From the IMG/VR virus record IMGVR_UViG_2531839448_000006: a DNA stretch of 41,535 nucleotides. The stretch is one strand, 5' to 3'. Every line of letters begins with the position of its first letter. Within the stretch, counting starts at the first letter, position 1. The notes below the pieces were generated by a model. The model was not told the DNA's origin and searched no databases. It saw only the letters and a list, made by a program, of their open reading frames with translations. Made by a program: the position numbers and the translations under genes. Shown piece after piece: positions 1-35,608 of this stretch. This DNA comes from a virus. Its lineage: Duplodnaviria; Heunggongvirae; Uroviricota; Caudoviricetes.

Positions 1-774
1 TTACAACTTAAAGAGTTTCGCTTGCCCTGGATTAACAGCTTCGACGTAGTTTTTGACCCCTATTCTGTGCGGCTCATAATTGCTTGAATAGAAATCAATC
101 AGGAAGTCACTCATTTTCTGAGATGTGACTTTCATAACTCCCTTACTCAAAGTTAAATTAAACACGCTAATCTTTGACGATGGTGCCTGAGTTTTACTCA
201 TGTTGGCTTGATAACCAGATTTGCGCATTGCCACTAGTGCTTCGTCGTAAGCCGCTTGTAATTGGGCCAAATCGTTTGACGAGATGATCACATCATCCAT
301 AAACACACTTAGCTTGAGATCATGATGTTTGTTCAATCGGCGTAGTAAGCTACCAAAATAACTTTTATCTAAGCAGAGGGTTGCAAGTATTGGAGATTGA
401 ACAAAACCAAAAGGGAGGACATGCTTATGTGGACTATGGGACAAGTTTCTTACAGTTGAAAATGTTGAGATTTCCCGCGCTTGAGAATAGGTGAAGTAGC
501 TCTTTAGATCACGGGTGATACGACTACGGCTCGTTGACTGAAAAAATTGTTTAATATCAACAACGGCAAAAAAATCACTTTTTAAGTGTAATCTGGCAGC
601 TTTAAGATGCCCACCAGTTCTTAGATGGTAAAAATAGAGTGGCGGAATCCACTTGTTTCTGACAGCCTGAAGTATCTTCCCTCCGACTTTACGTGCCTCA
701 ACGCTTGGGACATAAACCCAAACCCCGGGCTTAATCTCAAATTTATCTTCCCACCTTTGAACTTCTATTGTCAT
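1..774 (-). CDS. Reverse transcriptase-domain protein, compact (257 aa)
   Basis: Translation shows RT motif A (FFAVVDIKQFF), motif B (LPFGFVQSPILATL) and motif C (FMDD, DD codons near 292-297). ATG at 772-774 with an in-frame stop one codon upstream; stop codon at 1-3, so 257 aa is full length in this sequence. Motif spacing resembles retron-type RTs but no VTG motif seen. Confidence 0.75.
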   Translation of the reverse strand: MTIEVQRWEDKFEIKPGVWVYVPSVEARKVGGKILQAVRNKWIPPLYFYHLRTGGHLKAARLHLKSDFFAVVDIKQFFQSTSRSRITRDLKSYFTYSQAREISTFSTVRNLSHSPHKHVLPFGFVQSPILATLCLDKSYFGSLLRRLNKHHDLKLSVFMDDVIISSNDLAQLQAAYDEALVAMRKSGYQANMSKTQAPSSKISVFNLTLSKGVMKVTSQKMSDFLIDFYSSNYEPHRIGVKNYVEAVNPGQAKLFKL

Positions 775-916
775 GAGTTAAATTGCTGTAGTTGAAGGCC
801 ATGTTAAGAACGGCGTAAACCGCACCAACTAAGCCAACAAACGCGGTTGCGCATTTGAGCATAGCGGTGATCAGTTCAACACGCGCCTTAACTAAGCCAA
901 GTTCGTTTGTATCCAT
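743..916 (-). CDS. Small hydrophobic protein (about 57 aa) immediately upstream of and overlapping the RT gene
   Basis: ORF-track frame 743..931; internal ATG at 914-916 is preceded by GGAGG at 7-nt spacing. Product contains one long hydrophobic stretch (LITAMLKCATAFVGLVGAVYAVLNMAF). Overlaps RT start by 32 nt. Could alternatively be non-coding (ncRNA region). Confidence 0.35.
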   Translation of the reverse strand: MDTNELGLVKARVELITAMLKCATAFVGLVGAVYAVLNMAFNYSNLTHDNRSSKVGR

Positions 917-1099
917 AACTTGTTCCTCCATAGATACCTGACGTCTCTTAGCGCAAGCGCATGGCCCTAACTAAATAAAAAATAACAACCAGTTAGCCCA
1001 GAAAGCTTAACAAGTCGGCGTCCGATTACATGGCAATCAGGTAATCGGTCCGCAGTCGCAAAGCGACAAACTACATATCTACGGAGTGGGGATAAATCC

Positions 1100-2438
1100 C
1101 ATAAGCGCTAACTTAAGGGTTGTGGTATTACGCCTGATATGATTTAACGTGCCGATGAATTACTCTCACGATAACTGGTCAGCAATTCTGGCCCATATTG
1201 GTAAGCCCGAAGAACTGGATACTTCGGCACGTAATGCCGGGGCTCTAACCCGCCGCCGCGAAATTCGTGATGCTGCAACTCTGCTACGTCTGGGGCTGGC
1301 TTACGGCCCCGGGGGGATGTCATTACGTGAAGTCACTGCATGGGCTCAGCTCCATGACGTTGCAACATTATCTGACGTGGCTCTCCTGAAGCGGCTGCGG
1401 AATGCCGCCGACTGGTTTGGCATACTTGCCGCACAAACACTTGCTGTACGCGCCGCAGTTACGGGTTGTACAAGCGGAAAGAGATTGCGTCTTGTCGATG
1501 GAACAGCAATCAGTGCGCCCGGGGGCGGCAGCGCTGAATGGCGACTACATATGGGATATGATCCTCATACCTGTCAGTTCACTGATTTTGAGCTAACCGA
1601 CAGCAGAGACGCTGAACGGCTGGACCGATTTGCGCAAACGGCAGACGAGATACGCATTGCTGACCGGGGATTCGGTTCGCGTCCCGAATGTATCCGCTCA
1701 CTTGCTTTTGGAGAAGCTGATTATATCGTCCGGGTTCACTGGCGAGGATTGCGCTGGTTAACTGCAGAAGGAATGCGCTTTGACATGATGGGTTTTCTGC
1801 GCGGGCTGGATTGCGGTAAGAACGGTGAAACCACTGTAATGATAGGCAATTCAGGTAATAAAAAAGCCGGAGCTCCCTTTCCGGCACGTCTCATTGCCGT
1901 ATCACTTCCTCCCGAAAAAGCATTAATCAGTAAAACCCGACTGCTCAGCGAGAATCGTCGAAAAGGACGAGTAGTTCAGGCGGAAACGCTGGAAGCAGCG
2001 GGCCATGTGCTATTGCTAACATCATTACCGGAAGATGAATATTCAGCAGAGCAAGTGGCTGATTGTTACCGTCTGCGATGGCAAATTGAACTGGCTTTTA
2101 AGCGGCTCAAAAGTTTGCTGCACCTGGATGCTTTGCGTGCAAAGGAACCTGAACTCGCGAAAGCGTGGATATTTGCTAATCTACTCGCCGCATTTTTAAT
2201 TGACGACATAATCCAGCCATCGCTGGATTTCCCCCCCAGAAGTGCCGGATCCGAAAAGAAGAACTAACTCGTTGTGGAGAATAACAAAAATGGTCATCTG
2301 GAGCTTACAGGTGGCCATTCGTGGGACAGTATCCCTGACAGCCTACAAAACGCAATTGAAGAACGCGAGGCATCGTCTTAACGAGGCACCGAGGCGTCGC
2401 ATTCTTCAGATGGTTCAACCCTTAAGTTAGCGCTTATG
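1100..2438 (+). mobile_element. IS186 (IS4 family) insertion sequence, intact
   Basis: Perfect 23-bp terminal inverted repeats CATAAGCGCTAACTTAAGGGTTG at 1100-1122 and 2416-2438 (reverse complement). Flanking 10-bp direct repeat GGATAAATCC at 1090-1099 and 2439-2448 (target-site duplication). Element length about 1.34 kb, single transposase ORF. Confidence 0.9.
1155..2267 (+). CDS. insL: IS186 transposase
   Basis: 372-aa ORF (track 1149..2267, GTG at 1149; ATG at 1155) recognised from memory as the IS186/IS4-family transposase (MNYSHDNWSAILAHIGKPEEL...). Confidence 0.9.
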   Translation: MNYSHDNWSAILAHIGKPEELDTSARNAGALTRRREIRDAATLLRLGLAYGPGGMSLREVTAWAQLHDVATLSDVALLKRLRNAADWFGILAAQTLAVRAAVTGCTSGKRLRLVDGTAISAPGGGSAEWRLHMGYDPHTCQFTDFELTDSRDAERLDRFAQTADEIRIADRGFGSRPECIRSLAFGEADYIVRVHWRGLRWLTAEGMRFDMMGFLRGLDCGKNGETTVMIGNSGNKKAGAPFPARLIAVSLPPEKALISKTRLLSENRRKGRVVQAETLEAAGHVLLLTSLPEDEYSAEQVADCYRLRWQIELAFKRLKSLLHLDALRAKEPELAKAWIFANLLAAFLIDDIIQPSLDFPPRSAGSEKKN

Positions 2439-2835: not shown

Positions 2836-3936
2836 TCATTCCATTTCGAGATCATCAACCTTCACTTCAAGCTCAAGACTGGTCGTAAAACCATTATCCG
2901 GGCTGACGGTATGTGTCAGAGTCGTAATGGTCCATTCCGCATCATCTATCGGCTGTTTAAAGCCACTGACTTTCACTGGCATTTCCGTGTAGAGATCTGC
3001 CCGCCCTTCCGCCAGTTGTAGCGAGAATGACGCAACGCCGCGTTGCAGGCGTTCCCACTGCATTTTCGCTGCCCGTTCGGCGTTACTCCGATTGGCATAG
3101 GTGCGATTGAGTACCAGCACGTTTTCATCCGTACCCACCAGGTAATCGCCCTGCTTCGCTTCCGGCTCTTTCTTCTGATTCTTCGTTCTGCGCTTACGCT
3201 TCACCGTAGTGCTTTCTTTCTTCGCGGGTTCGCGGGTATGCAACCAGCTGGCAATTACGCCCGTGTAGGCTCCGCGATCTGCCAGGGTAAAGCGGTGACT
3301 GTCGCCGTCCTTGCGTGTGATAGTGATCACCGGCAGTGGTTTACCGCTGGCGCTTTTACCCTGTCCCTGCCGGATGAATAACAGATTGCCATTTTTCACC
3401 GACGCAATAGCACCGTACTGGCGCGCCAGCCGCATCAGAAAACTGCCGTCACTCTCATTGGTCTGGTCTATATGTTCCACGGGCTTATCCGACAGGTCTT
3501 TACCCAGTGCCATCTTCAGCTTATGCCGCGAGGCTATTTCCTTCACCACTTCCCCAACGGTGGTCTTGTGCCACGACTTTTCACGGCGGGTATTCAGCGT
3601 TTCACGAAAATCAGCACTTCGCGCCCGGATAGTCAGGCGGTCCGGTGCGCCAGTGTGTTCAATCTCGTCCACCGTGAATGCCCCTTTAGGGAAAAGCGGC
3701 TGCCCCTTCCAGCCCAGCGCCAGCGTAATGACCGCACCACGGCGCGGCAGCACGATTTTTCCGTCGGCGTCGTCCAGCTCCAGATCAAGCTGGTCCGCTT
3801 CAAAGCCCCGATTGTCCGTCAGAGTCAAACTCATCAGGCGGTTATCCAGCACAGTGTTGATATCCCTGCCCTCAATACTGATGCTGAATGCGGGAGTTTT
3901 GTTGCCTTTGTTAAGCAGTTCAGAGCTGAAATTCAC
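2836..3936 (-). CDS. D: Tail protein D
   Basis: 366-aa product similar to P2 gpD (recalled); position between U and ogr. Confidence 0.85.
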   Translation of the reverse strand: MNFSSELLNKGNKTPAFSISIEGRDINTVLDNRLMSLTLTDNRGFEADQLDLELDDADGKIVLPRRGAVITLALGWKGQPLFPKGAFTVDEIEHTGAPDRLTIRARSADFRETLNTRREKSWHKTTVGEVVKEIASRHKLKMALGKDLSDKPVEHIDQTNESDGSFLMRLARQYGAIASVKNGNLLFIRQGQGKSASGKPLPVITITRKDGDSHRFTLADRGAYTGVIASWLHTREPAKKESTTVKRKRRTKNQKKEPEAKQGDYLVGTDENVLVLNRTYANRSNAERAAKMQWERLQRGVASFSLQLAEGRADLYTEMPVKVSGFKQPIDDAEWTITTLTHTVSPDNGFTTSLELEVKVDDLEME

Positions 3937-4418
3937 GACAGCAGCCCTCCCACCGTTTTACTGATATCACTTAAGGCAGATGTTGCCGTGTCCTGCAGAT
4001 TATTCAGCTGCGTACTGAGATCACCGAACATATCGGACAGGGATTCATCCACCCGTTTGAGCGACAGGGTGAACTCAATCCGGCGCGGCATACCGTCGCG
4101 GAAAAACTCCGTTTTAGTCAGATTCAGTCCCTCAATCACATACATGCCGTAAATCGTGCCGCTGCCTTCAATCAGGGGCCATGCTTTTCCCTGTTCTGCC
4201 ATCTGCTCCAGAGCCAGCAACGACAGCCTGCCGCCCGTTATCTCCGGCATAAGAACACCAGAAAGCGTCAGCATGTCGTTGTCCGGTCCCAGAAACTGCG
4301 TGGACGGACGACGGTTTACCCGGCTGTTTGCCGCATGTCGCCAGCTGCGTTGATACTGCAGTTCCTGATACGGAACGGTGCGCAGCATAAACACGTACAA
4401 TCCCAGCACCATCATCAT
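3933..4418 (-). CDS. U: Tail protein U
   Basis: 161 aa, P2 gpU-like; overlaps D start and T stop by 4 nt. Confidence 0.85.
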   Translation of the reverse strand: MMMVLGLYVFMLRTVPYQELQYQRSWRHAANSRVNRRPSTQFLGPDNDMLTLSGVLMPEITGGRLSLLALEQMAEQGKAWPLIEGSGTIYGMYVIEGLNLTKTEFFRDGMPRRIEFTLSLKRVDESLSDMFGDLSTQLNNLQDTATSALSDISKTVGGLLS

Positions 4419-7400
4419 GCGTCGTATCCCCCCTGATCGCTGTAGTTACTCCTGGCTTTTGCCTTCAGCCTGCGTTCACGTTCATCAAGCTGGCGTGCCA
4501 CCTCCCGCGCAATATCCTGCGCACTTTGTCCTGGCTGCGTCTGAATGATGATCTGCGTCGGTGCCTCAATCCGGTGAACGGGCGGCACAGTGGCTGCACG
4601 ACTCACCATCGCTTCGCCGCCTTTCGCGGGAAGTGCCAAAGGATGCAACGGTGGAAGCTCTGCAGGCGCGGCAGCAACGCCCATCATTCCGGCAACAACG
4701 GCAGCCAGTGCAGCTGTATTTCTCCGGCTGGTCACATTTGCCGGGCCGTTAACAATTTCCGGCCCGTTTTCACCGACGATGCCAAACTGCCCGCGCGGGA
4801 TATAGCCGCCGCTGTCATACATCCCCGCAAAGCCATATCCCCATGACGGAAAACCACCCGATGGCATCATCACTTTACCGTCTGCATTCACCGTCGCAGG
4901 TTGCTGACGCGTCACTCTTTCCGGCAATTTCGCCTTTGCAGCCTCTTTACTGACAATGCCGAGTTTCTCCAGCAACCAGGAAACGCCGGATTTCAGGGAG
5001 TCCAGCGGATGCATGACCATATTCAGCCCTTCCGCCAGTGCCTCCCCGAATCGTCGCCCCATTGCCGCTGCGCTCTGCAGTTCGGCAGAGGTCGACTTAA
5101 CGGGCGTCAGCAGATCAGTAAACCAGCCCCACAACGCCTGCACTTTGTCGCCAATCCACTGAAACACAGGCTTAAGTGGTTCGAATGCTGCACTGATGGG
5201 ACCTGCCGCCGCTTTGAATCCTTCCACCACACCAGCGAGAAATGCGGTGATGGGTTGCCAGTATTTCCAGACAACCAGCGCCACGCCCGCCAGTGCAGTA
5301 ACCACAAGACCTATCGGACTGAGCAGAGCACCTAACAGACCCGATATGGCATACAGGGCAACGCGCAGCATCGCCAGCGGACCGGATGCCAGTACTCGCA
5401 GCACCGCGCCTGCGGCAGCCAGTCCACCGCGTAGTGCTGCCAGTGGATTCATAAACATCACAGCAACAGCACGTAAACCGGATAATCCAGACCGCAACAG
5501 TGCAACCGGCACACCTACTACAGTTTTCAGGACATTCCCCGTCAGTGATGCCGTGCGGCGCAAAGACGACAACGGCGCAGTAAGTAAACCCGCTGCGTTG
5601 CCCGATGAAGCAAGCCCGCGTCGCAGCAGTGCCAGTGGAGCGCCAGCTAACCAGGACAACGCGCTGCTGGTTCGTGTTACTGCTGCCGTAACGGAAGGTA
5701 ACGTTTTGATACCCAGCACAGAGAATCCCAGACGGATGACTGCCAGCGGCCCCAGCACTGCAGCCAGCGCCACCACTAAGGTGCCGAGGCCTACGGTAAC
5801 CGCAGCCACAACAGCCGCTACTTTCATCAGTGTGCCTGTCAGTTCCGGGTTAGCTTCCACCCAGCGGCGCAACGCCCCCGTGATGCTTTTCACCGTGTAC
5901 AGAATATCCATCAGCGGCTGGCGCAGCGTTTCGCCCAGGCTGCTGAAGGTGTTCTGCGCTCCGGTTTTGACCAGTAACCACTGAGCAGAAAGTGAGTCCT
6001 TATTGATGTCGGATTCTTTCTGCATGGAGCCGAGCGCATCATTGCCCGCTGTCAGTTTTAACTGACGCTGCAGTTCCGGCAGGTTGTTTGCCAGTTTCGC
6101 CGCGTCATCGCCAAACTCTTTACCAAACAACATGGTCATGGCAGACAGACGCTTGTCCTGCGGCAGTGCGTTCACCTTCTCCAGCACACGCTGGATAGTT
6201 CCCATCGCATCCTTCGTCATCTGCTTTTCAATCACTTCAGGATTGAGTTTCAGCAGATTCATCCCTTCAAAGAAACTCTTGCTCTGCATGGTGGCAATGG
6301 ACAATTCACGCACCATCGCGTTTGCTGCACTGGCTGCAACCTCCGGCGCAGCGCCCAGTGTCAGGAAGGTGGAACCCAGCACCGCCGCTTTACGATAATC
6401 CAGACGGTCAGCCACACCGCCCAGACGTTGCATCACATCAATGATGTCCGCCCCTTTCGACATGGCGTTATCATCCAGATAGTTCAGCGCATCGCCGAGC
6501 TGTTCAATATTGCGGGTTGGTATTTTGTAGAGCTGGGCGATTTTCCCCAGACTTTCTGACAGTTCATCCGCTGGCAGCTCAAAGGCTGTTGCCGCCTTTG
6601 CTGCCGTACTGGCGAAGGCCAGCAGGTCACGTTTCTGGTCTTCCCAGCTGTCGTCAGGGTTTGCGACGTTCATGCGCGCACCACCTTCAACCAGTGCAGC
6701 GAAGTCCACCGCACCGTTTTCCATCGGCAACTGTTCGCTGGCAGCCTTGATGGCATCCTGCATTTCATAAAAACGTGCAGTGCGGTTGCCATTATCGTCA
6801 CGCAGACCATTGACCTGCTTTGCCACACCTTTCATGGCATCTTCCATGCTGGTATAGCTTTTTACTGCCGCCATCACTGGCGCACCCATTGCCAGCCCTG
6901 CAGCCGTGGTAGTGGCTCCGGCTCCTGCGATGCGATCGCGCACTTCAAGCCGTCTTGAGTATTGTTCTCTGGCAGCGTTCATCCGTGCCTGTTGTTCACC
7001 CAGACGTTTAAGTGCTTTTTGCTGGCCCTCCAGTGCCTGCCTTGTTTCTTCAGCATTTTTCTTAAGTTCTCGCTGGGCACTACTGAGTTGTCTGGTATCA
7101 ATCCCTGATTCTTTAAGTGCCTGACGTTGTCTCTGGACCGCCCCCAACAAGCCGTTATAGGTCTGCTGAAGTTCCTGTACTCGTGTTTTGGCCTGACTGA
7201 ATAACTTTGCCTGCGCGGCGGTTGGCCTGTTAGTGGCAGCAAATTGTGTGGCGAGTTTTGCCGCCTCTTCGCGGGCTGCGTTCAGGTTGTTGGCTGTTAT
7301 GGCTAGTTGCGAGCGCGTCTTGCGAAATTCATCAATTCTGCCAGCCTGCTTATTCAGTTCTTTGAGGCTGTTTCGGGTATTCTGAATTGCGCCAGCCAGC

Positions 7401-20722: not shown

Positions 20723-22489
20723 ATGAACACCACACTGACACCCGCAGATCTCGATCCCCGTCGGCAGGCCATGCTGCTGTACTTTCAGGGATACCGCGTA
20801 GCCCGCATTGCTGAAATGCTGGGCGAGAAAGTTGCAACCGTTCACAGCTGGAAAAAACGCGACAAGTGGGGTGACTATGGGCCGCTGGATCAGATGCAGC
20901 TCACCACCGCCGCACGCTACTGCCAGCTCATTATGAAGGAGCACAAAGAAGGGAAAGATTTCAAAGAGATTGACCTGCTGGCGCGCCAGTCGGAGCGCCA
21001 CGCGCGGATCGGCAAGTTTAACAATGGCGGCAACGAATCCGACTTAAACCCTAACGTCGCCAACCGCAACAAAGGCCCGCGCCGTCAGCCGGAAAAGAAT
21101 GTTTTCACCGATGAGCAGATTGAGAAGCTGGAAGAAATCTTCCATTCCTCCATGTTCAACTACCAGCGCCACTGGTGGGAAGCCGGAAAAACCAACCGCA
21201 TCCGCAACCTGCTGAAGTCACGCCAGATCGGCGCGACCTTTTACTTTGCCCGTGAAGCCCTGATTGACGCTCTGCTTACCGGACGTAACCAGATTTTTCT
21301 TTCCGCCAGCAAGGCACAGGCTCACGTCTTTAAGCAGTACATCATAGACTTCGCCAAAGAAGTCGAGGTGGAGCTGAAAGGCGATCCGATGGTGCTTCCT
21401 AACGGAGCCACGCTTTACTTCCTCGGCACCAATGCCCGCACGGCCCAGAGTTACCACGGCAACCTGTATCTGGATGAATATTTCTGGATACCGAAATTCC
21501 AGGAGCTGCGCAAAGTGGCTTCTGGTATGGCTATTCACAAAAAATGGCGACAAACCTATTTTTCCACGCCATCCAGCCTGACACACAGTGCTTATCCGTT
21601 CTGGTCCGGTGCGCTGTTCAACCGTGGGCGCAATAAAGCCGATAAGGTGGACATCGACCTGTCCCACAGCAATCTGGCCCCCGGCCTGCTGTGCGCAGAC
21701 GGGCAATACCGCCAGATAGTCACCGTGGAAGATGCAGTGCGCGGCGGATGTAACCTTTTCGACCTCGATCAGTTGCGCATGGAGTACAGCCCGGACGAAT
21801 ACCAGAACCTGCTGATGTGCGAGTTTGTGGACGATCTCGCGTCCGTGTTCCCGCTCAGCGAGCTGCAGGCGTGCATGGTGGACAGTTGGGAAGTCTGGAC
21901 CGACTTTCATGCACTGGCCCTGCGCCCGTTTGGCTGGCGCGAAGTGTGGATCGGTTATGACCCGGCAAAAGGTACGCAAAACGGCGACAGCGCCGGGTGC
22001 GTGGTGGTGGCACCGCCAGCCGTGCCGGGCGGTAAGTTCCGCATTCTTGAGCGTCACCAGTGGCGCGGGATGGACTTCCGCGCCCAGGCTAACGCCATCA
22101 AAAAACTGACTGAACAGTACAACGTGACATACATCGGTATCGACTCAACCGGCGTCGGTCACGGGGTTTACGAGAACGTGAAAGCGTTTTTTCCTGCCGT
22201 CCGGGAGTTTGTCTACAACCCCAACGTTAAAAACGCCCTGGTACTCAAGGCCTACGACATTATTAGCCACCGCCGCCTGGAGTTTGACGCCGGGCACACC
22301 GACATAGCGCAGTCCTTTATGGCAATCCGTCGCGCCACCACTGCCAGCGGCAACCGCCCGACCTATGAGGCCAGCCGCAGCGAAGAAGCCAGCCACGCCG
22401 ATCTGGCCTGGGCAACAATGCACGCACTGTTTAACGAACCGCTGCAGGGCGAGTCCGCCAATACCAGCAATATTGTGGAGATTTTTTGA
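20723..22489 (+). CDS. P: Terminase large (ATPase) subunit P
   Basis: 588 aa (P2 gpP about 590 aa); conserved position and orientation. Confidence 0.9.
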   Translation: MNTTLTPADLDPRRQAMLLYFQGYRVARIAEMLGEKVATVHSWKKRDKWGDYGPLDQMQLTTAARYCQLIMKEHKEGKDFKEIDLLARQSERHARIGKFNNGGNESDLNPNVANRNKGPRRQPEKNVFTDEQIEKLEEIFHSSMFNYQRHWWEAGKTNRIRNLLKSRQIGATFYFAREALIDALLTGRNQIFLSASKAQAHVFKQYIIDFAKEVEVELKGDPMVLPNGATLYFLGTNARTAQSYHGNLYLDEYFWIPKFQELRKVASGMAIHKKWRQTYFSTPSSLTHSAYPFWSGALFNRGRNKADKVDIDLSHSNLAPGLLCADGQYRQIVTVEDAVRGGCNLFDLDQLRMEYSPDEYQNLLMCEFVDDLASVFPLSELQACMVDSWEVWTDFHALALRPFGWREVWIGYDPAKGTQNGDSAGCVVVAPPAVPGGKFRILERHQWRGMDFRAQANAIKKLTEQYNVTYIGIDSTGVGHGVYENVKAFFPAVREFVYNPNVKNALVLKAYDIISHRRLEFDAGHTDIAQSFMAIRRATTASGNRPTYEASRSEEASHADLAWATMHALFNEPLQGESANTSNIVEIF

Positions 22490-23514
22490 TGGGAAAGAGT
22501 AAGAAAAACCGCGCTGCGGCGACGAATCAGCTCAAGCATAAAAGCCAAACTTCAGCCGAAGCATTCAGCTTTGGCGATCCCGTTCCTGTTCTGGACCGCC
22601 GTGAACTGCTGGACTATGTGGAATGCGTACAGATGGACCGCTGGTATGAGCCGCCCGTCAGCTTTGACGGACTGGCACGAACCTTCCGCGCCGCCGTGCA
22701 TCACAGCTCACCAATTGCGGTGAAATGCAACATTCTGACCAGTACCTACATCCCTCACCCGCTGCTCAGCCAGCAGGCTTTTTCACGTTTTGTGCAGGAC
22801 TATCTGGTATTTGGTAACGCCTACCTGGAGAAACGCACGAACCGCTTCGGTGAAGTTATCGCCCTTGAGCCTGCTCTGGCAAAATACACCCGACGCGGGT
22901 TAGACCTGGATACCTACTGGTTTGTGCAATACGGTATGACAACCCAGCCGTATCAGTTCACGAAAGGCAGCATTTTTCATCTGATGGAACCGGACATCAA
23001 CCAGGAGATCTACGGCCTGCCAGGTTATCTTTCTGCCATTCCATCAGCCCTGCTCAACGAGTCCGCCACGCTGTTCCGCCGCAAGTATTACATTAACGGC
23101 AGTCATGCAGGCTTCATCATGTACATGACCGATGCCGCGCAGAACCAGGAGGATGTGAACAACCTCCGCAATGCGATGAAAAGCGCCAAAGGCCCTGGCA
23201 ACTTCCGCAACCTGTTTATGTACTCGCCTAACGGCAAAAAGGACGGGCTTCAGATCATCCCGTTGTCAGAAGTCGCGGCGAAGGATGAGTTTCTGAATAT
23301 CAAAAATGTCAGCCGCGATGACATGATGGCAGCGCATCGTGTGCCGCCGCAAATGATGGGGATTATGCCGAATAATGTTGGGGGGTTTGGGGATGTGGAG
23401 AAGGCAAGCCGTGTGTTTGTTCGTAACGAACTAATACCATTGCAAAAAAGATTGGATGAGTTAAATAATTGGTTAGACGATAAAATAATAACATTTAACA
23501 CATACAATTTTTAA
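22486..23514 (+). CDS. Q: Portal protein Q
   Basis: 342 aa (P2 gpQ about 344 aa); overlaps P stop by 4 nt. Confidence 0.9.
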   Translation: MMGKSKKNRAAATNQLKHKSQTSAEAFSFGDPVPVLDRRELLDYVECVQMDRWYEPPVSFDGLARTFRAAVHHSSPIAVKCNILTSTYIPHPLLSQQAFSRFVQDYLVFGNAYLEKRTNRFGEVIALEPALAKYTRRGLDLDTYWFVQYGMTTQPYQFTKGSIFHLMEPDINQEIYGLPGYLSAIPSALLNESATLFRRKYYINGSHAGFIMYMTDAAQNQEDVNNLRNAMKSAKGPGNFRNLFMYSPNGKKDGLQIIPLSEVAAKDEFLNIKNVSRDDMMAAHRVPPQMMGIMPNNVGGFGDVEKASRVFVRNELIPLQKRLDELNNWLDDKIITFNTYNF

Positions 23515-23519
23515 AGCAA

Positions 23520-23539
23520 GCCCTCAATCGAGGGCTTTT
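23520..23539 (+). terminator. Rho-independent terminator after Q (possibly bidirectional)
   Basis: Stem GCCCTC / GAGGGC with AATC loop followed by TTTT, 6 bp after the Q stop codon and 6 bp before the convergent cassette gene stop. Confidence 0.55.
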
Positions 23540-23544
23540 GAAAA

Positions 23545-24066
23545 TCAGTTAATCAGTTTATTTAATGACTTAGACCACTTCTGTCCCAAATCATCAATAT
23601 CAAAATCACCATCTCGCTGCTGCCATTTAAAAACTAAGGCTATAAGTTCACTCTTGAGGATTCTTTTATAATAATCCTTAGATTTTAATTGCTCAAGTAT
23701 ATGTTCACCAACCTCAGCAAGCTTTCTATGATTTAATTCTGACAGATCTCGATGCAAATGGTTAACTGATTTATACAAAGTATTTCCTTCAGTACGAGAA
23801 ATATCAATACCTTTATCTTCAAACCATTGTGAATCAAGCCAAACCAAATCTATCGTAGCTGGCTCTGACATCGTGGTGGCAAGGGCAACAATAATTTTCT
23901 CTACCGATTCATCTTGAAAATCGATAGAGTCAGAAACCCAAACTGACAAGGTGTTATTAGAGGTCCTTGTGCAACCTGTTATCGCGTCTGCGGATATATT
24001 GTCAGGTGCTCTACCTTTATTACATTCCCATTTACTATGGGATATTTTACGCAATAAATATGTCAT
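23545..24066 (-). CDS. Hypothetical protein, third gene of AT-rich three-gene accessory operon
   Basis: 173-aa ORF; ATG overlaps upstream stop (TAATG) indicating translational coupling; no motif recognisable by eye; AT-rich versus prophage core. Confidence 0.6.
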   Translation of the reverse strand: MTYLLRKISHSKWECNKGRAPDNISADAITGCTRTSNNTLSVWVSDSIDFQDESVEKIIVALATTMSEPATIDLVWLDSQWFEDKGIDISRTEGNTLYKSVNHLHRDLSELNHRKLAEVGEHILEQLKSKDYYKRILKSELIALVFKWQQRDGDFDIDDLGQKWSKSLNKLIN

Positions 24067-24713
24067 TATAGACTTCTCAAATATCCTATAACTGCTTCTT
24101 TATATTCTTCCACCCAATCAGCATCAAATTTCCTCATTCTTTCAAGGACTGGAATAAATGATTTTTCCCCCCAAGACTCAACTGCACGGATCGCTGCCTC
24201 AAATATAAGTTCATTCTCAAGAGAACAAACTCCCATAATCATAGCGTCAGCTTTATTACCTAACCATTCATATTCAATAGTCGATGCAAAATTAATGAAG
24301 TTCTTTACATGTTGATCATTCATTCTGTACAATTGTACCCATGTCCTTTGAAAGGACTCTTGGAATAAATCCTGATTTTTATCATACAAGAACTCCATGT
24401 AAATCTGTGTCTTGCTTATCTCGCCTTCAATGTAATCTTCTGAACATGTTAACTCAATTAGTCTAGAGGTACATTTTGAAACCTGAATTTCAAAGTTCTG
24501 CTTAGTTGACGAACCTTGATTTATTGACTCAGTCTCTAATTGAAAGCCACCATTTGTTTTGCTATGTGACAGCTCATTTCTTTTAATATCAGCGTAAATG
24601 ATATTGTTACCATCATAATAATCAGAAAATGCACCTATTGAACTTACCCCATTTTTAAACTTAGGTAAGCCAAAAGGCTTTTCATCACTTATTATAAAAC
24701 TATTCTTTACCAT
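24066..24713 (-). CDS. Hypothetical protein, second gene of three-gene accessory operon
   Basis: 215-aa ORF starting 10 nt after the upstream stop with GGTGA just upstream of the ATG; no recognisable motif. Confidence 0.6.
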   Translation of the reverse strand: MVKNSFIISDEKPFGLPKFKNGVSSIGAFSDYYDGNNIIYADIKRNELSHSKTNGGFQLETESINQGSSTKQNFEIQVSKCTSRLIELTCSEDYIEGEISKTQIYMEFLYDKNQDLFQESFQRTWVQLYRMNDQHVKNFINFASTIEYEWLGNKADAMIMGVCSLENELIFEAAIRAVESWGEKSFIPVLERMRKFDADWVEEYKEAVIGYLRSL

Positions 24714-24722
24714 AGCATCACC

Positions 24723-25418
24723 TTACAGAGAAGTGTAGCGTTGTAAATTATCAATAGTTTTAAGATTGTCCTGACACAATAACTCTAGCACGCGGATATA
24801 TTCATCCCAACCAAACCGCATATATCCATTTTGAGGAAGAGTATTAGTATCAGTTTCAAATAATACGCAATCACTTGGCATACCATTATTCAAAAATGGA
24901 GCTGAAATTTCAGCGCGTCTAATTGTACTAATACTATTAATTTCTTCCTGATACTCTTCAATATTTTTCCTTACAGCTATACGATTGTCCCACTCAAATG
25001 GATTAACACCTTTATAGGTAAACAAAGCATTGTAAAGCGAAAAGTAAACAGATTCATCCCCTTGATAGATACGTGAATTCAGAACAGCTATCCTATTTCC
25101 TTTTTTCATCGGAAATACGTTTTGTAGTTCCCTAGATATAGATAGAACCATTTCTGAAAACGCTTGAGGTTCCCCCCCCAAACCATTAAAAATGATTCCA
25201 TGGCTAGGAAACTCGACTCTTACTGTTTGATTGGTATCTACCATGATAAGAATTTGCTTTTTCTCACCAGTGATGGCATTAATCTCCTGACCAAAAGTAG
25301 GTACAAATCCAAATTTTCCAATCTTATCAAGCATAGATCCAATAGTTAGTGTATTTGGAACTATATCATTATTATTTGTGAAAAAATTAATCTGATGCGT
25401 CTGTTCAATCAATTTCAT
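24723..25418 (-). CDS. Hypothetical protein, first gene of three-gene accessory operon
   Basis: 231-aa ORF with strong RBS (AAGGAG, 5-nt spacer) before ATG at 25416-25418; no recognisable motif. Confidence 0.6.
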   Translation of the reverse strand: MKLIEQTHQINFFTNNNDIVPNTLTIGSMLDKIGKFGFVPTFGQEINAITGEKKQILIMVDTNQTVRVEFPSHGIIFNGLGGEPQAFSEMVLSISRELQNVFPMKKGNRIAVLNSRIYQGDESVYFSLYNALFTYKGVNPFEWDNRIAVRKNIEEYQEEINSISTIRRAEISAPFLNNGMPSDCVLFETDTNTLPQNGYMRFGWDEYIRVLELLCQDNLKTIDNLQRYTSL

Positions 25419-25565
25419 AATTGCTCCTTGTTCAAAAAAACACCACCGCTCAGTGGTTCCTCTCTGTTAAAATATTCTAGTTCAACTTACTCTCAATATG
25501 AATCAAAGCTTAACCCTGGTTGGTAATTAAGTCACACTTTTCTTCATAGTAAGGGATTTCGCGCG

Positions 25566-25584
25566 CTCGTATCCCCGCCACGCC
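25566..25584. other. Candidate cos (cohesive end) site
   Basis: Reverse complement reads GGCGTGGCGGGGATACGAG, resembling the P2/186 cohesive-end sequence as I recall it (GGCG.GGCGGGGAAAGCA.); recalled, not verified. Confidence 0.3.
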
Positions 25585-25624
25585 TGCCCGCTTTATGTAG
25601 TGGTTTTCATGCACCTGCATGAGC

Positions 25625-25653
25625 TACGCAAAAGCCCGCCAGTTCTGGCGGGC
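25625..25653 (-). terminator. Rho-independent terminator downstream of the LexA-regulated operon
   Basis: GC-rich stem GCCCGCCAG / CTGGCGGGC (25634-25653) followed on the minus strand by TTTTGCG. Confidence 0.5.
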
Positions 25654-25788
25654 CTTAGCAAAAACGATCCTCAAACGATCATGCGATCTCATGCGGCATA
25701 GACATGCACTACAGAGCTAACGCCTCGCAAGGGCTCGTTGTTCAACCTTGCTGACGCCAGAAGCAAGTTCAGACGCCAGCAACGTTTC

Positions 25789-26374: not shown

Positions 26375-28789
26375 TTAATACAGGTTCCGCCACTGATCAT
26401 CTTCCTGCAAACGCTGGCTCCGATAGAAGATACGCAGGCCTGCTCCTGACGGAATACTGCCTCCGCGAAGGAGTAAATCGACCTCTTTCTCGCTGCCATC
26501 AAATCCTCTGGACTTCAGCTCATACACGAGCTGCAGTCGCTGATGGTCTGTAATTCGCTGTTTGTAGTCTTTACGCCGTTTCGGTTTCACCAGGCATAAC
26601 CTTGCTGCCAGTTCCCGGCGCTCTTTTTTGCTCATACTGTGCAGGTAATCGTGCAACTCCTTGTCATCCATGCTGGTAATGTCCGTTCTGGGGTCCCCAT
26701 CAGCTGATTTATCTTTCTCCTGTTGGTTCAAATTTTCAGCAAGGGGACAGTTATTGCCACGAGTCCAAGGGGCGCAAGCGCCCTGGTCGGCTGCCGCCTC
26801 CTGAACGTCAACGGCTTTACGAACCATTTTCCACTTCACTGCATGAGTGCAGATCTTGCCCTCTGCAATGGGTGACCAGATGCCATAAATACGAATACCG
26901 TGATCGCCATAGGCGGTCGGCTCTTCGTTGATTTCATAAGCGGTTCTGATGAGGTGATATTTACGGGGAACCAGTACGCCGCCCTGCTTCATGATGTAGG
27001 TGGCAAAGCAACCAGCATCAGCTGCAGCCAGAATGGCATCAAGGCGCTGGTTATCCAGTACCGGCGCACCTGCTTTTTTGTCACCCTGTTGCCTTGCCGC
27101 CTGACCAGCCAGCAATCGCAGTTCACGGTAAGCCTGACGCCCCGGAATGCCAAAGAAGCGGAATTGCTGAACACGATGCAGAGACGCCCAGGCATTAACG
27201 TATTCAGCGTTATCACGCAGAGATTTACCCGTTTCCTTGCTGATCTCGCCAGCCAGACCACGCCCGTCAATGTTCTTACTGATATATTTCGCGATGTAGC
27301 TTGTCGGCGTTCCTTTGCGCGGGTTAATCAACTCAGACTTAAAGCGCGGCCCAGTGTTATTGCCCAGCTCCTCGCGGTCTTCACGGATGGCAAACTTACG
27401 CAGTAATGCAGTGATGGCGCGGCGGTCTTTTTTGCGCATAAAACACAACAGGTGCCAGTGAACTGTACCGTCATGATGCGGCTCAGCCACCCGCACGCCA
27501 TACCAGCGCAATCCGGCTTTGTGCATCGCCTTACGAAATGCAGCAAACATGCCGACCAGATAGTCGCTGCTTTGTCTTACCGTCGAGTTTGTCCAGGTCG
27601 GGTTGGGTCTGCCGTTATTGAGCGTGGAATGGAAACGCGACGGACAGGTGATAGTGTAGAAAACGGCGCAGTCACCGCGCATTTCCGCGATAAGCTCCAG
27701 ACCTTTAACACAGGCCATCATCTCATTGCGGCGATGCGCCGGGTTGCTGCTGCTGGCGTTTACCACATCTTCCATATCCAGCGTGTCGCCGTCTTCGTTC
27801 ACCAGTTCATGAGAACGGAAAAACTCCAGCGACTTACGGCGCTGCTCACGTTTATGCATCACGGCTTCATAGCTGACATAGGGGGATGCTTTTTTGCTGA
27901 CCAGGCAGACAGCACGCAACTGCTCTTCCCGCCATTCGCAACGCATCTTCCATAATTTCCGATACCACCAGTCGGCACACAACATACGCGCCAGCGAACC
28001 CGGAATGAGTTCATAGGGCACGGGTTTACGGCGGTTTCTTTTCCGACGGAGTTGCTCAAACGCAGGCGGAATAACATCCAGACGCAGGGTTTCCGCTGCC
28101 ACCTTTTCCCATGTTTTGCGGATTTCTTCTGGCTTAACGTCATCGGTGGCATACAAATCACCACAAGCGGCATCAAGGCACATGCTCATATGCGCAGCGA
28201 CAAGGGTGGACAGGCGCTTCACCTGATCCTGACTCATTTCAGGCAGGATAAGCAGGCCATCCAGCCCTTCATGGCTTGCCATAAAGCGAAAAGAAGTGGA
28301 TAGCTGACAGTCGCGGACATGCTCCAGTCGTTCCAGACATGGCTTAATCGTCTCACGCAAATAGCGGGAATAAGCCTTTGGCCTGCCCAGGCTGCTGAAA
28401 TATTCAATACGTTGCATCAGCGGCTTGCTGATATGGGAAGGCTGGGCGTTGACGTCAGCCAGAATGACCATGTCCGGATTAAAACGCTGCTGCTCATGCG
28501 CCAGCTTTGCCCGGCTAATGAGCTTATCCTGCTCCATTTCGCGCTGGACAGGATCACGGGATTCATTAAAGAAATAACGCTCCCAGACCTGATCACTCAG
28601 TGCCTCGCGGCGCAGTTGTTCCTGCTCGTTATCGGCAGCGTACAGAGTGATCAGGTTTGAAAGTGCAGAAACCGGCGCAACTTCCGCCGGGTCCAGATAA
28701 GGGTTAATGGCCTTTTTTGGGCTGTTCCATGAGAATGCTGCGGCGACCTCGTTAAAGCCGCTGCAGTTGTTCATATCAGCATGGCTCAT
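26375..28789 (-). CDS. A: Replication initiation endonuclease A (rolling-circle initiator)
   Basis: Large ORF at the P2 gene A position; track start is TTG at 28816, first ATG at 28787-28789 overlaps the dam stop codon (ATGA). Confidence 0.8.
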
Positions 28790-29643
28790 GCACGCACTCC
28801 GTACACGGCGGAACAATCCACGCCACGCGAAGGATCAAATCCTATCCAGCAGCGCGGCCCGGCAACAGCAATGATTTCTGTTGCAGATTTACTCTCACCA
28901 GCTGCCACGCCGATGCTGCGTTTTGCCTTGATGTAGTGGTGAGTAAAATTGCGATACAGCGAACGGATCAGGGATGTGTCACTGTTAGAAATAATGACCG
29001 GATATCCTTCTGATGACCAATGTTCAAGAACAGATGCCAGGTGATACTGGTCATCTTCAGTGAAACCATCAGTGTGATAGCCGGAAAACGTACCGTCATA
29101 AGGCGGATCGCAATACACCACATCCCCCGCGTGCAACATCGCCAGCGTTTCATCGAAGCTGGCGCAGATAAACGTTGCCCGCTGGGCTTTTACTGCAAAT
29201 GCACGAATTTCTTTTTCAGGAAAATACGGATTTTTATAATTACCGTAGGGAATGTTGAAATGCCCGCTCTTGTTATAGCGACATAAACCACGGTAACCGT
29301 GACGATTGAGATACAGGAAATATATCGCTTTCATAAAATCAGTAATTTCAGTTGAGTAATTAAACTCCTGCCTTATGTTGTAATAATCCATCTCCCTGTT
29401 TGCGTTCTCAAATAAAACTCTGGCGCGAGATATAAACGATTCACAATCAGCGGCAACCTTTTTATAGAGGTTGATTAAATCAGGATTAATATCCGCAACC
29501 AGATAGCTGGGATAATCCGTCTCCATCATCACAGCACAGGAACCCGCGAAAGGTTCAACCAGTCGCGGGCCAGCAGGAAGATGTTTTTTCAGTTCGGACA
29601 TTATGGCAGTTTTATTTCCCGCCCATTTCAGGATGGTGCTCAT
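28786..29643 (-). CDS. dam: DNA adenine methyltransferase (Dam-like, N6-adenine)
   Basis: Catalytic DPPY motif ([10 protein letters not shown]) and N-terminal KWAGNK...FAGS AdoMet-binding region; ATG at 29641-29643 with GGAGG RBS. Confidence 0.85.
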
Positions 29644-32470: not shown

Positions 32471-33487
32471 ATGACTGTCAGAAAACAGCCAAACGGCAAA
32501 TGGTTGTGTGAGTGCTATCCCAATGGACGCAATGGCAAGCGCGTGCGTAAGCAATTTGCTACGAAAGGAGAAGCCATTGCTTTTGAAAGCTTCACAATGG
32601 AAGAAGTGAATAAAAAACCGTGGCTAGGTGAAAAGGATGATCGGCGACGCCTATCAGAATTAATTGAGCTTTGGTATTCCCTGTATGGCCAGACACTCGC
32701 AGACCCCAAGCGCCTCATGGCGAAACTTAGAATTATCTGTAATGGTCTAGGCGACCCCATCGCCTCAGAACTGACAGCCGGTGACTTTACAAAATACCGC
32801 GAAGCACGGTTAAAAGGCGACGTTCGTAACGAAGACGGCACACTAATGTCGCCAGTAAAACCACGCACGGTGAATCTTGAGCAACGTAACCTATCATCGG
32901 TTTTCGGCACATTGAAAAAACTAGGCCACTGGTCAGCACCAAATCCTCTCGCCGGGCTGCCAACATTTAAAATCGCTGAGGGGGAACTGGCGTTCCTGAC
33001 CTCGGAAGAAATTAAACGTCTGCTAGATGCCTGCGCTGATTCTCAAAACCCCAGTCTGCTTTTGATTGCAAAAATATGCCTGGCCACCGGCGCACGCTGG
33101 AGTGAAGCCGAAAACCTGCAGGGCCATCAGTTATCTAAATACCGCATCACTTATACCAAGACGAAGGGCAAGAAAAACCGCACCGTGCCGATATCTCAAG
33201 ATCTGTATGACGAACTCCCCAAGAACAGAGGGAAGCTATTCACCCCGTGCAGAAAAGCCTTTGAACGGGCAGTAAAGCGAGCTGGCATCGAGCTGCCAGA
33301 GGGCCAATGCACTCACGTGCTACGTCATACATTCGCCAGTCATTTTATGATGAATGGCGGAAACATACTGGTCCTACGCGATATTCTGGGCCATGCCGAT
33401 ATAAAAATGACGATGATTTACGCCCACTTTTCGCCGGATCATCTTGAAGATGCAGTTACTAAAAACCCTTTATGCAACTTAAGATAG
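32471..33487 (+). CDS. int: Tyrosine integrase
   Basis: 338 aa; C-terminal catalytic region with R...HxxRH...Y pattern (VLRHTFASHF...MIYAHF); position after the repressor as in P2/186. Confidence 0.9.
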   Translation: MTVRKQPNGKWLCECYPNGRNGKRVRKQFATKGEAIAFESFTMEEVNKKPWLGEKDDRRRLSELIELWYSLYGQTLADPKRLMAKLRIICNGLGDPIASELTAGDFTKYREARLKGDVRNEDGTLMSPVKPRTVNLEQRNLSSVFGTLKKLGHWSAPNPLAGLPTFKIAEGELAFLTSEEIKRLLDACADSQNPSLLLIAKICLATGARWSEAENLQGHQLSKYRITYTKTKGKKNRTVPISQDLYDELPKNRGKLFTPCRKAFERAVKRAGIELPEGQCTHVLRHTFASHFMMNGGNILVLRDILGHADIKMTMIYAHFSPDHLEDAVTKNPLCNLR

Positions 33488-33865: not shown

Positions 33866-35608
33866 CTACTCAAGAAGATATTCTAACTCATCTTTTATCG
33901 GGATAACTTGCTCATAAAGTCGGTGATATGACTTCCCAATTGCGCCTCTGAATTGTATTAACTTTGGTGGCTTGTTACCTATATTAATAATATGGTCTTG
34001 AGCTATACCTGGGTAGGGATCAATAAATACAATTTCAGATATACCTAACTGATAAGCTTTTTTCGCACACAGCTCACAGGGACTGGCAGTTGTATATAAC
34101 CTCCCCCCCTGAACGCCAATGCCACCATATTTTGCAAGTTGTAAAAATGCGTTTTCCTCAGCATGTAATGCACGTGTATGAACTTGATTACCTTTTTTAT
34201 CTTTATCAAGATCATTATGTATATCTTTAAAACAATAAGATAAGTTCCTGCCTCTATAAATATCACCAGTTTTATCTATCGCCCTAAAATTTAATAGTTT
34301 CTCATTAGCTTTAATTCTGAAAGAACTATTATTTCTCTCATAATGACTGTACACTTTTTCATCAAAGTCGTTCATTAGGCCATCTAGCGATCTCATAGAG
34401 CAAGGAATCTGACCGTTGGCGACATCATTCCAACCCACTGATTTTATTGAATTTTCACCATCAGTTACTACAGCTCCCACCTGTCTAGATATACAACCAG
34501 AGTTTAATTTTACCGTATACGCAACTTGCATAACCCTTTCCATTGCAGTAGGTGTTATCAGACCAGGATGCTTCATCAGTGCGATGTACCACGCTAATTG
34601 TGCTTTTAAAATATTGTCATTATCAAATTCATTTTTTGGGTTAAAAATGTGTATATCTGATAGTTCAATGCATTTAGTTACATTTGGATTAGTGAGATGT
34701 TTGTAAGAGTTATCACCTTTACCTGACTCTACAGAATCTATTTCCTCTATCTGCTTTTCAGAAAACTTATGTAGTTTCCGCAAATAGTTTGTTCGATGTT
34801 CATCTGGGGCATTTATTGACATTAAATGAAATGCAGAATATCTATCCTTAAAAAATTTTGCTTCATATGGATTTCTAATAGCATCTATGACAATTAATGC
34901 GTTATCTCTTTTGCTTTTTCTTATTAATTTAATAACCCTATTAATAGTTTCCGGCAAATGAAAAACAGATTTAGGTATAAACTCTTTATCTTCAAAATCG
35001 ACTTCAATACGCCCACGGCGTCTAATTGACTTACCTGCTAACTGATAGACTGAAACATATAAATTTGAGTTTATCGCATTTAGTTCAGCTTTGAATTCCT
35101 TAGTAAATTTTCTAACTAACCTCAAAATTGATATAAATTTATTAATCGTTTTTTCATTAAGCTTCAATTCACTATTATGATCAAGCAAATTCTCAATTAC
35201 ATTTTTAAATCTTGTTAAAATGAGATTATCTGAAAATACACCAAAAGTTAATACATTATCTAAATGCTCTTTACTGATAGATTTATTAGATGATAGAATA
35301 AACTCAGAAGCTTCTTCAACTGTTAACATCAAAAGATACGCTGAGATTAGGTCACTCACCTTAATTGAGTAAAAATTTTCCCAGTGATTTTCTGCGAATT
35401 TTTTAACTATATTATAACGATGGACATCCAATCCCTTGTAAAAACCCTGTAATTTACTTACATCAGGGAAGACTGTTTTTTCGTTTTCAAGAATATTAGC
35501 TGTTGTTGTGCAACCAGAACCAGTTCGACCTGTCAAACCGACTAAAATAAACTGCCCATTTTCAAGGAAAAGCTCACTAACGAATTTTTTTCTTTCATCA
35601 CGTCCCAC
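33866..35608 (-). CDS. P-loop NTPase/kinase-like plus cytidine/dCMP-deaminase fusion protein (dCTP-deaminase-type defence candidate)
   Basis: 580 aa; N-terminal glycine-rich P-loop-like motif GLTGRTGSGCTT; C-terminal zinc-deaminase signature HAEENA ... PCELC about 30 residues apart; AT-rich gene. Confidence 0.65.
   Translation of the reverse strand: MGRDERKKFVSELFLENGQFILVGLTGRTGSGCTTTANILENEKTVFPDVSKLQGFYKGLDVHRYNIVKKFAENHWENFYSIKVSDLISAYLLMLTVEEASEFILSSNKSISKEHLDNVLTFGVFSDNLILTRFKNVIENLLDHNSELKLNEKTINKFISILRLVRKFTKEFKAELNAINSNLYVSVYQLAGKSIRRRGRIEVDFEDKEFIPKSVFHLPETINRVIKLIRKSKRDNALIVIDAIRNPYEAKFFKDRYSAFHLMSINAPDEHRTNYLRKLHKFSEKQIEEIDSVESGKGDNSYKHLTNPNVTKCIELSDIHIFNPKNEFDNDNILKAQLAWYIALMKHPGLITPTAMERVMQVAYTVKLNSGCISRQVGAVVTDGENSIKSVGWNDVANGQIPCSMRSLDGLMNDFDEKVYSHYERNNSSFRIKANEKLLNFRAIDKTGDIYRGRNLSYCFKDIHNDLDKDKKGNQVHTRALHAEENAFLQLAKYGGIGVQGGRLYTTASPCELCAKKAYQLGISEIVFIDPYPGIAQDHIINIGNKPPKLIQFRGAIGKSYHRLYEQVIPIKDELEYLLE

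Follow-up and report, generated by a model that had tools for sequence, protein, structure and literature searches.

P2-like prophages carry exchangeable genes beside their cos site, and the cos-proximal region between gpA and gpQ is a published defence hotspot of this family (PMC9122126; PMC13586616), in which 81% of the P2 elements have defence-associated genes (PMC13586616). The P2 genes old and tin as well as DUF4238, DprA-PRTase, and 2TM-1TM-TIR share this niche and are swapped next to cos in the same way. Another resident is Rst_3HP (pFR109), which consists of three hypothetical proteins of 333, 359, and 227 residues and has been validated against phage P1 (PMC9122126). Here, we analysed a stretch of 41,535 nucleotides, the virus record IMGVR_UViG_2531839448_000006 (the window in the following), which represents a P2/186-type prophage of Escherichia coli. 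Between about 23,541 and 25,559 (2 kb) it contains a self-contained, horizontally mobile module of three genes that is carried as hotspot cargo. We refer to the genes of this cassette as g1, g2, and g3:

25424 to 25429, minus strand: Shine-Dalgarno sequence AAGGAG, read from the sequence, 5 nt 5' of the ATG of g1
25418 to 24723, minus strand: g1, open reading frame (ORF) of 231 residues, acidic and cytosolic product
24713 to 24066, minus strand: g2, ORF of 215 residues, acidic and cytosolic product
24066 to 23545, minus strand: g3, ORF of 173 residues, acidic and cytosolic product

Like Rst_3HP, the cassette is a three-gene operon of domain-less proteins in the gpA-gpQ hotspot of E. coli P2-like prophages. 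However, its proteins are considerably shorter, and it is located between cos and Q whereas Rst_3HP is found between cos and DinI. At the sequence level, comparison with the Rst_3HP sequences of Rousset Table S2A did not exceed 24.6 bits in BLASTP, 0.5 bits in searches with hidden Markov models (HMMs), and a probability of 1.1% in HHalign. An earlier interpretation of the same DNA made from its letters (the sequence-only reading) had considered a match to a catalogued system of three hypothetical proteins, and this suggestion fails because the cassette is unrelated to Rst_3HP. The same is true for P2 old/tin and the other validated cargo, whose proteins are unrelated and whose PADLOC and Pfam models do not match g1, g2, or g3.

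The basic anatomy had been described correctly. All three ORFs are co-oriented on the minus strand, the ribosome-binding site AAGGAG is present at 25429-25424, and the cassette is AT-rich, having a GC content of 34.6% compared to 55.6% in the late-gene block and 48.2% in the early block. The genes g1 and g2 are separated by 9 nt while the stop codon of g2 and the start codon of g3 share bases (TAATG). Transmembrane segments were not found in any of the three proteins. Each protein has full-length homologues with conservation at the protein level, and their genes are arranged alike in 39 of 41 loci (see below). Therefore, g1, g2, and g3 can be regarded as genuine genes, and chance ORFs are excluded.

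The homologues show how far the cassette has spread. A word-indexed search resulted in 22, 6, and 53 homologue clusters for g1, g2, and g3, respectively, and a profile search with g3 against 1.84 billion representatives revealed 1,862 relatives at E<=1e-3, including 861 at E<=1e-10, so that, counted in clusters at 50% identity, the g3 family has a size of at least 1,862. All g3 relatives found by profile are single-domain proteins of about 160-190 residues, and they are distributed over several phyla, with Larkinella, Limihaloglobus, and the candidate division KSB3 among the sources. For the analysis of synteny, HMMs were built for the three families and the ORFs of every fetched locus were scanned. 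Of the 41 loci long enough for such a count, 39 have g1-g2-g3 in this order and in tight packing, about 30 of these being non-redundant. They range from Enterobacterales to a Bacteroidota genome and include IMG/VR contigs whose g3 is only 30-40% identical. The two exceptions are a g2-g3 pair without g1 in Limihaloglobus and one locus in which g1 was not detected. Among the three proteins g3 is the most conserved, followed by g1 and then g2.

The carriers are diverse. In Klebsiella P2/186-like prophages the cassette occupies the identical slot, in more distant P2-like phages it adjoins the portal and terminase genes, and in the Acinetobacter phage Ab105-1phi and its relatives it is found at the genome end. 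A distant copy (229, 199, and 173 residues; L046 220-2031) is the sole sizeable cargo of plasmid P3 of K. quasipneumoniae, a non-mobilizable ColE1-type plasmid of 4,375 bp, and another copy is carried by a 7.5-kb MOBQ plasmid. Further copies are part of islets in Acinetobacter, Vibrio, Shewanella, and Microbulbifer, where the neighbours are integrases or housekeeping genes. The cassette is best described as a conserved mobile three-gene unit.

Some details of these loci deserve mention on their own. Plasmids of 4.4-8 kb that are near-identical to P3 are present in K. pneumoniae, and weaker g3 matches are found on 5-kb Enterobacter plasmids. A bacteriocin operon was considered for the ColE1 plasmid and rejected, because the proteins are acidic and cytosolic, and a search for signal peptides, transmembrane segments, and ORFs of lysis-gene size found none. 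The Klebsiella loci contain an ORF of 85 residues between DinI and the cassette. In Vibrio alginolyticus (L013 8678-14772) an integrase and four unannotated proteins of 582, 681, 152, and 174 residues adjoin the cassette, and these four may constitute another uncharacterised system in that islet.

Within E. coli the slot itself can be compared between strains. The flank of cos is common to 1,277 of 5,426 complete genomes, but the cargo of the window is present in only 4 of these. A second, divergent allele resides in the same slot in CE0026f and five other strains (6/5,426), and its proteins are 45% (g1), 41% (g2), and 58% (g3) identical to those of the window. In MFDS1016424 the slot is filled by a reverse-transcriptase gene together with two hypothetical genes, and in phage 500465-1 by a gene encoding a TIR domain. 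The cargo swapping that had been postulated for the interval between Q and A is thus borne out, and by both its location and its exchange the prophage segment is cargo of the P2-like cos-proximal defence hotspot.

Many draft assemblies also contain DNA 100% identical to the cassette, and some of the annotations there could be mistaken for decay. A protein of 128 residues (P0007), which is indexed in 186 blocks of the collection, a further short protein (P0077), and a truncated g3 entry in Rousset Table S5 suggested degraded cassettes in which g3 is inactivated where g2 is broken. The locus of P0007 was read. In this E. coli draft (GCA_012381175.2, L050) the positions 3490-5610 are 100% identical to 23500-25620 of the window, although the genes are annotated in shortened form with 128, 85, and 134 residues. 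The short proteins at the P0007 locus are therefore gene-calling artefacts, and degradation is rejected for this locus because its DNA is intact. The truncated g3 entry of Rousset Table S5 differs at a few residues.

The cassette is not new to the databases. The protein g1 corresponds to WP_032235580 in Table S5 of Rousset 2022, where it appears in the list of the P2 locus and in the table of genetic systems (the row reads '83' and '43'), and it is not among the cloned systems of Table S2. In Table S10 of DefensePredictor, g2 is listed as WP_000240425.1 with the label 'Predicted novel defense gene' and a mean log-odds of 7.07, and the adjacent g3 of 173 residues has a log-odds of 4.60 (PMC13092281). 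The cut-off of that study is 4 and 1,041 clusters are classified there as 'predicted, uncharacterized' defence; the accessions of g2 and g3 are absent from its tables of 118 tested units. Both scores are above the cut-off, so that an independent machine-learning model rates g2 and g3 as defensive. A literature search by protein accession did not find any paper text naming these proteins. Because it is present in both tables and outside the tested sets, the cassette is an already catalogued candidate defence system and not previously unseen. In draft genomes such as NZ_MCLD01000056, g1 is listed in Rousset Table S5 together with a protein of 280 residues (WP_089614730), which has a log-odds of 6.7 in DefensePredictor and is itself a predicted novel defence gene there. 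This listing may represent a different or chimeric arrangement of the cargo.

That no enzymatic or structural motif could be recognised by eye agrees well with the library searches. The window's three proteins had 0 matches in PADLOC 2.0.0 at E<=1, and only noise in Pfam and NCBIfam at the same threshold. In PHROGs each of them falls into a function-unknown family, g2 into phrog_21208. When 137 relatives (68 close ones and 69 distant g3 proteins) were scanned singly, no consistent Pfam or PADLOC family emerged; the PADLOC 2.0.0 matches were scattered, single, and to unrelated models, with E values of 4e-4 and above. Profiles of the three families, including broadened alignments, did not match any sequence of the PDB. 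Homology to housekeeping or virion functions, which would speak against a role in defence, was looked for in the library scans and was not found for g1, g2, or g3. Faint matches of single members were obtained in two cases. One relative of g3 matches NarE of Pfam (E 0.069), and one of 25 members of the g1 family has the 'sporadically distributed' family TIGR04255 as best NCBIfam match (E 0.007), which is below the threshold. The g1 of the window does not match TIGR04255, a family that is itself uncharacterised and that is not mentioned in the literature searched.

For g3 the predicted structure (predicted local distance difference test, pLDDT, of 89) consists of an N-terminal alpha/beta domain and a C-terminal helical part. 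The g3 superfamily shares the motif R6-K7...K12-W13...A26-D27-A28...T35...L40-S41-x-W43...H105-x-D107, and within its 69 members R6 is conserved to 99%, S41 and H105 to 100%, and D107 to 86%. In the model, strands are formed by residues 3-8, 38-45, and 105-111. Accordingly, strand 1 carries the invariant or near-invariant R6 and K7, strand 2 carries L40-S41-x-W43, and a later strand carries H105-x-D107, the further positions of this rank being W13, D27, and T35. The sequence-only reading had pointed to a weak HEPN-like R-x6-H (RDLSELNH) in this protein. A HEPN effector is rejected, however, because R106 and H113 are each conserved in less than 60% of the superfamily members and even close relatives have L, Y, or R in place of H113. 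In addition, residues 105-111 are modelled as a beta strand, an all-alpha HEPN fold is not present in the g3 model, and HEPN proteins were not found among its fold matches.

A different lead is given by the ADP-ribosyltransferase (ART) fold. Foldseek did not report anything significant for the g3 model, the list being headed by NarE and Tpt1/KptA, and the weak fold matches of two programs are mostly to HopF2, Tpt1/KptA, RES toxins, NarE, LT, DarT, MbcT, and ParT. The R6 on beta1, the S41 on beta2, and H105-x-D107 would correspond in their strands to those that bear R, S, and [Q/E]-x-E in the R-S-E transferases. The predicted pattern recalls the R-S-[Q/E]xE transferases, but without the Glu: an invariant Glu was not found in the g3 superfamily, and H105-x-D107 stands in place of the conserved catalytic Glu of ART-fold toxins and effectors (DarT, RES/MbcT/ParT, NarE, HopF2, Tpt1/KptA). 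The scores to these folds are below significance, g3 has an extra C-terminal helical domain, and a profile-level link by sequence was not found. From the model, ART chemistry for g3 is conceivable, although we would rather bet against it.

The predicted structure of g1 (pLDDT 92) is an alpha/beta sandwich of two layers, in which a beta-alpha-beta(n)-alpha repeat occurs twice. In distant homologues P40, R109, and E142 are invariant and Q9, E45, W143, and R146 near-invariant, and of these R109, E142, E45, and R146 are placed on strands of the predicted sheet. The modelled fold appears closest to the catalytic fold of guanidino kinases and glutamine synthetases, but generic two-layer sandwiches score nearly as high. 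Phosphagen and protein-arginine kinases such as arginine kinase and McsB are thus a lead for the predicted fold and not for the sequence family: membership in the kinase family (Pfam ATP-gua_Ptrans) is not supported, since searches of Pfam, NCBIfam, and the PDB sequences with g1, its profile, and 22-25 relatives did not give a match. In g2, an alignment of 14 homologues shows that the N-terminal 80 or so residues are rich in Ser and Asn and variable in length, and that about 135 C-terminal residues are conserved and helical (DDYIEGEISKTQ...LVNEAAIRAAESW). By eye, this C-terminal domain looks HEAT-like. There is no Pfam or PDB match for g2, and the HEAT-repeat match by HHblits is weak (probability 50.7, Table S10 of PMC13092281). 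DNA-binding antitoxin domains were not detected in any of the cassette proteins.

We favour a function in defence because of the hotspot residence, the cargo swapping, the low GC content, the patchiness, the conservation as a unit, and the DefensePredictor scores. Overall, we infer with a probability of roughly 0.6 that the cassette is anti-phage, and the odds seem about even that it is mobile hotspot cargo protecting the lysogen from other phages via an abortive-infection or toxin-antitoxin-like mechanism. It would then probably be of a kind already known, namely cos-proximal hotspot cargo with an abortive-infection-like system. Several points weigh against this. The cassette is absent from the sets tested by Rousset 2022 and DefensePredictor. 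The association with known defence genes is modest: the 150 flanking ORFs from 24 loci include two to three ATPases of the PtuA (Septu) or AriA (PARIS) type (best E 5e-188), and 6 integrases. Being the sole cargo of a tiny plasmid would fit an addiction module equally well.

As for the mechanism, g3 is proposed as the effector on account of its conservation, which is the highest of the three, its family, which is the largest, and the ART-like lead. It might be a divergent ART-fold enzyme with NAD+ as substrate, serving either the modification of a target or the depletion of NAD+ itself. The g2 protein would be the translationally coupled obligate partner, either inhibitor or scaffold, that keeps g3 inactive, and its hypervariable and probably disordered N-terminus could be the labile or phage-sensing part. 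A pairing of g2 with g3 is suggested by the overlap of their genes and by the Limihaloglobus pair without g1. The g1 protein may act as sensor or as nucleotide-dependent regulator that triggers the release of g3. In CmdTAC (PD-T4-9) three small cytosolic proteins act as ART-fold toxin, labile antitoxin, and infection-sensing third protein, and this tripartite toxin-antitoxin-chaperone system is an analogy for how the cassette might work. A more far-reaching version of the defence reading is that this module founds a type of immune system with three components, all of uncharacterised families, that is widespread from Proteobacteria to Bacteroidota and Planctomycetota. In such a system, a member of a new minimal ART-like effector family (R-S-HxD instead of R-S-E) would be held by a HEAT-like inhibitor whose hypervariable tail serves in sensing, and an enzyme of the guanidino-kinase fold would couple the detection of infection to the release of the effector. 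This version we put forward with considerable reserve. One possible coupling would be the nucleotide-dependent modification of the inhibitor g2; no defence system is known to have a coupling of that kind. More generally, an active cassette would be a broadly distributed defence system of three uncharacterised families and would annotate thousands of 'hypothetical' genes of prophages, plasmids, and islets. It could also bring to light a new effector chemistry, with an ART-like enzyme that lacks the Glu, and a guanidino-kinase-like fold that for the first time has a role in immunity. An inactive cassette would be ordinary prophage cargo of unknown function.

Other explanations have to be considered. 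Within defence, the roles could be distributed differently, with g1 modifying a phage or host target as a kinase- or ligase-like enzyme that depends on ATP and has the guanidino-kinase/glutamine-synthetase fold, and g3 being a non-catalytic sensor or adaptor. The enzymes of this fold bind ATP and substrate at sheet strands such as those on which R109, E142, E45, and R146 of g1 are placed, and the ART signal of g3, which is below significance and without a catalytic Glu, also speaks for this distribution. It is hard to see, however, why the catalytic subunit should be absent or undetectable in 2 of 41 loci and thus dispensable; the strongest conservation and the widest distribution, which one would expect of an effector, are those of g3. 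In addition, a kinase motif is missing in g1 as is any Pfam or PDB match, and the generic sandwiches with nearly the same score reduce the value of the fold lead. This distribution of roles is therefore rated as unlikely. An addiction module of the toxin-antitoxin type that stabilises its prophage, plasmid, or islet without a dedicated anti-phage role would explain the overlap of g2 and g3, the existence of the g2-g3 pair without g1, and the location on the 4,375-bp ColE1 plasmid and the 7.5-kb MOBQ plasmid. ART-fold toxins are also common in toxin-antitoxin pairs (DarTG, RES-Xre, ParST, MbcTA), which are represented among the weak fold matches of g3. But a plain type II pair would not need the third gene that is kept in nearly all loci, an antitoxin with a DNA-binding domain was not detected, DefensePredictor rates g2 and g3 as defensive, and the hotspot is one in which four out of five P2 elements carry defence-associated genes. 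Because many toxin-antitoxin-like modules are anti-phage themselves, this explanation overlaps with the defence reading, and in its pure form we consider it quite improbable.

The cassette could also benefit the phage itself as an accessory module for anti-defence, host takeover, or lysogenic conversion, for example with an Alt/Mod-like modifying enzyme in the lytic cycle of the carrier. Modification of host proteins by ARTs of phages is well established (T4 Alt, ModA, and ModB), and the cassette is found at moron positions in two unrelated types of temperate phages, the P2/186-like and the Ab105-1phi-like phages of Acinetobacter. P2-like elements do sometimes carry anti-defence genes (28 P2 elements, PMC13586616), but these are rare in P2 hotspots. 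Moreover, the cassette is also present outside of phages, on small plasmids and in housekeeping contexts of Acinetobacter, Microbulbifer, and Shewanella, and with promoter space and terminators to itself and an orientation convergent with the late operon it does not belong to a lytic transcription unit. A module in the service of its carrier phage is accordingly given a low probability. Finally, the cassette might be a copy of an already named system, be it Rst_3HP, another system catalogued in PADLOC, or a HEPN RNase module. The resemblance is superficial and consists of three hypothetical proteins in a P2 hotspot and an R-x6-H string in g3. With neither BLASTP, HMMs, nor HHalign supporting Rst_3HP, with 137 family members lacking a consistent PADLOC match, and with an R-x6-H that is unconserved and partly located in a predicted beta strand, a named system is extremely improbable. 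The defence reading with g3 as effector is thus the one that we prefer.

The boundaries of the cassette and its control regions can be described from the following features:

20723 to 22489, plus strand: terminase P, left of the cassette
22486 to 23514, plus strand: portal Q, left of the cassette and convergent with g3
23518 to 23537: hairpin AAGCCCTC-AATC-GAGGGCTT, read from the sequence, in the gap between the convergent stop codons of Q and g3
25433 to 25466, minus strand: terminator-like 5' leader hairpin with U-run, between the promoter candidate and the ribosome-binding site
25474 to 25502, minus strand: sigma-70-like promoter candidate TTCATA-17-TAGAAT (9 of 12), the best one for the operon, from a consensus scan only
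25560 to 25584, minus strand: 186-type cos core, GGCGTGGCGGGGATACGAG at 25566-25584, then CGCGCG down to 25560, read from the sequence
right flank, minus strand: DinI-like gene, followed by a 62-residue phrog_698 gene and replication endonuclease A (26375-28816)

The flanks are as the sequence-only reading had them, with P and Q on one side and DinI and A on the other, and the order along the window is A, DinI, cos (25566-25584), g1-g3, and Q. Because the cos core sits between DinI and g1, the cargo lies between cos and the stop codon of Q. The assignment to a cos-proximal locus is therefore correct, but the cargo is on the side of cos opposite to that of P2 old/tin and Rst_3HP, as is evident from the inserts in Table S2A of Rousset 2022 (PMC9122126). 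The same cos motif is present in the pFR109 insert of that study (PMC9122126). Thus, the P2 hotspot takes cargo on both sides of cos. When five loci with different alleles were aligned, the columns of the cos core were invariant and the cargo side was fully divergent straight after, and by this alignment the cos core is the cos-side boundary of the cargo. As identity vanishes just past cos, the upstream region comes with each cargo, and one of the recombination boundaries lies directly at cos. On the other side, the gap from the stop codon of Q (23514) to that of g3 (23545) measures only 30 bp and holds the one hairpin at 23518-23537, which, by its position, is the terminator common to Q and g3 and the Q-side boundary of the cargo.

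The operon had been credited with its own upstream promoter space. This is plausible, with 13 promoter-like matches in the region compared to 9.0 +/- 3.0 expected from shuffles, which is not an excess. The leader hairpin has an RNA fold of -16.3 kcal/mol (z = -2.43) and is allele-specific, not being conserved in the other cassette alleles aligned. It could possibly act as an attenuator, or as an insulator that stops read-through coming across cos from the early operon. A retron-like non-coding RNA was considered for the locus and rejected, because an Rfam scan did not give any match at the gathering threshold and only chance-level matches at E<=1. In the E. coli strain CV839-06, RefSeq annotates a pseudogene ('hypothetical protein, internal stop') at about 25510-25692 on the minus strand. 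A genuine gene is improbable here, given the overlap with the cos core and with the conserved flank of cos.

Two further genes at the prophage ends are worth noting. An ORF of 580 residues (33866-35608, minus strand) is located just past the integrase (32471-33487, plus strand). The corresponding region of CV839-06 is 99.9% identical, and the 580-residue ORF is annotated there as 'anti-phage dCTP deaminase' (WP_000660070.1). By this identity, the prophage has at its int/att edge a second defence gene, one that is already known. Within window positions 1-2300 there is a gene with a reverse-transcriptase domain by ogr, together with an IS421 (IS4-like) transposase of an insertion sequence. In CV839-06 the reverse-transcriptase-domain gene is followed by ssrA and smpB instead; a tmRNA or tRNA was not found in the window. 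The gene may be a reverse-transcriptase-based defence gene at the other end of the prophage, possibly disrupted by the insertion sequence.

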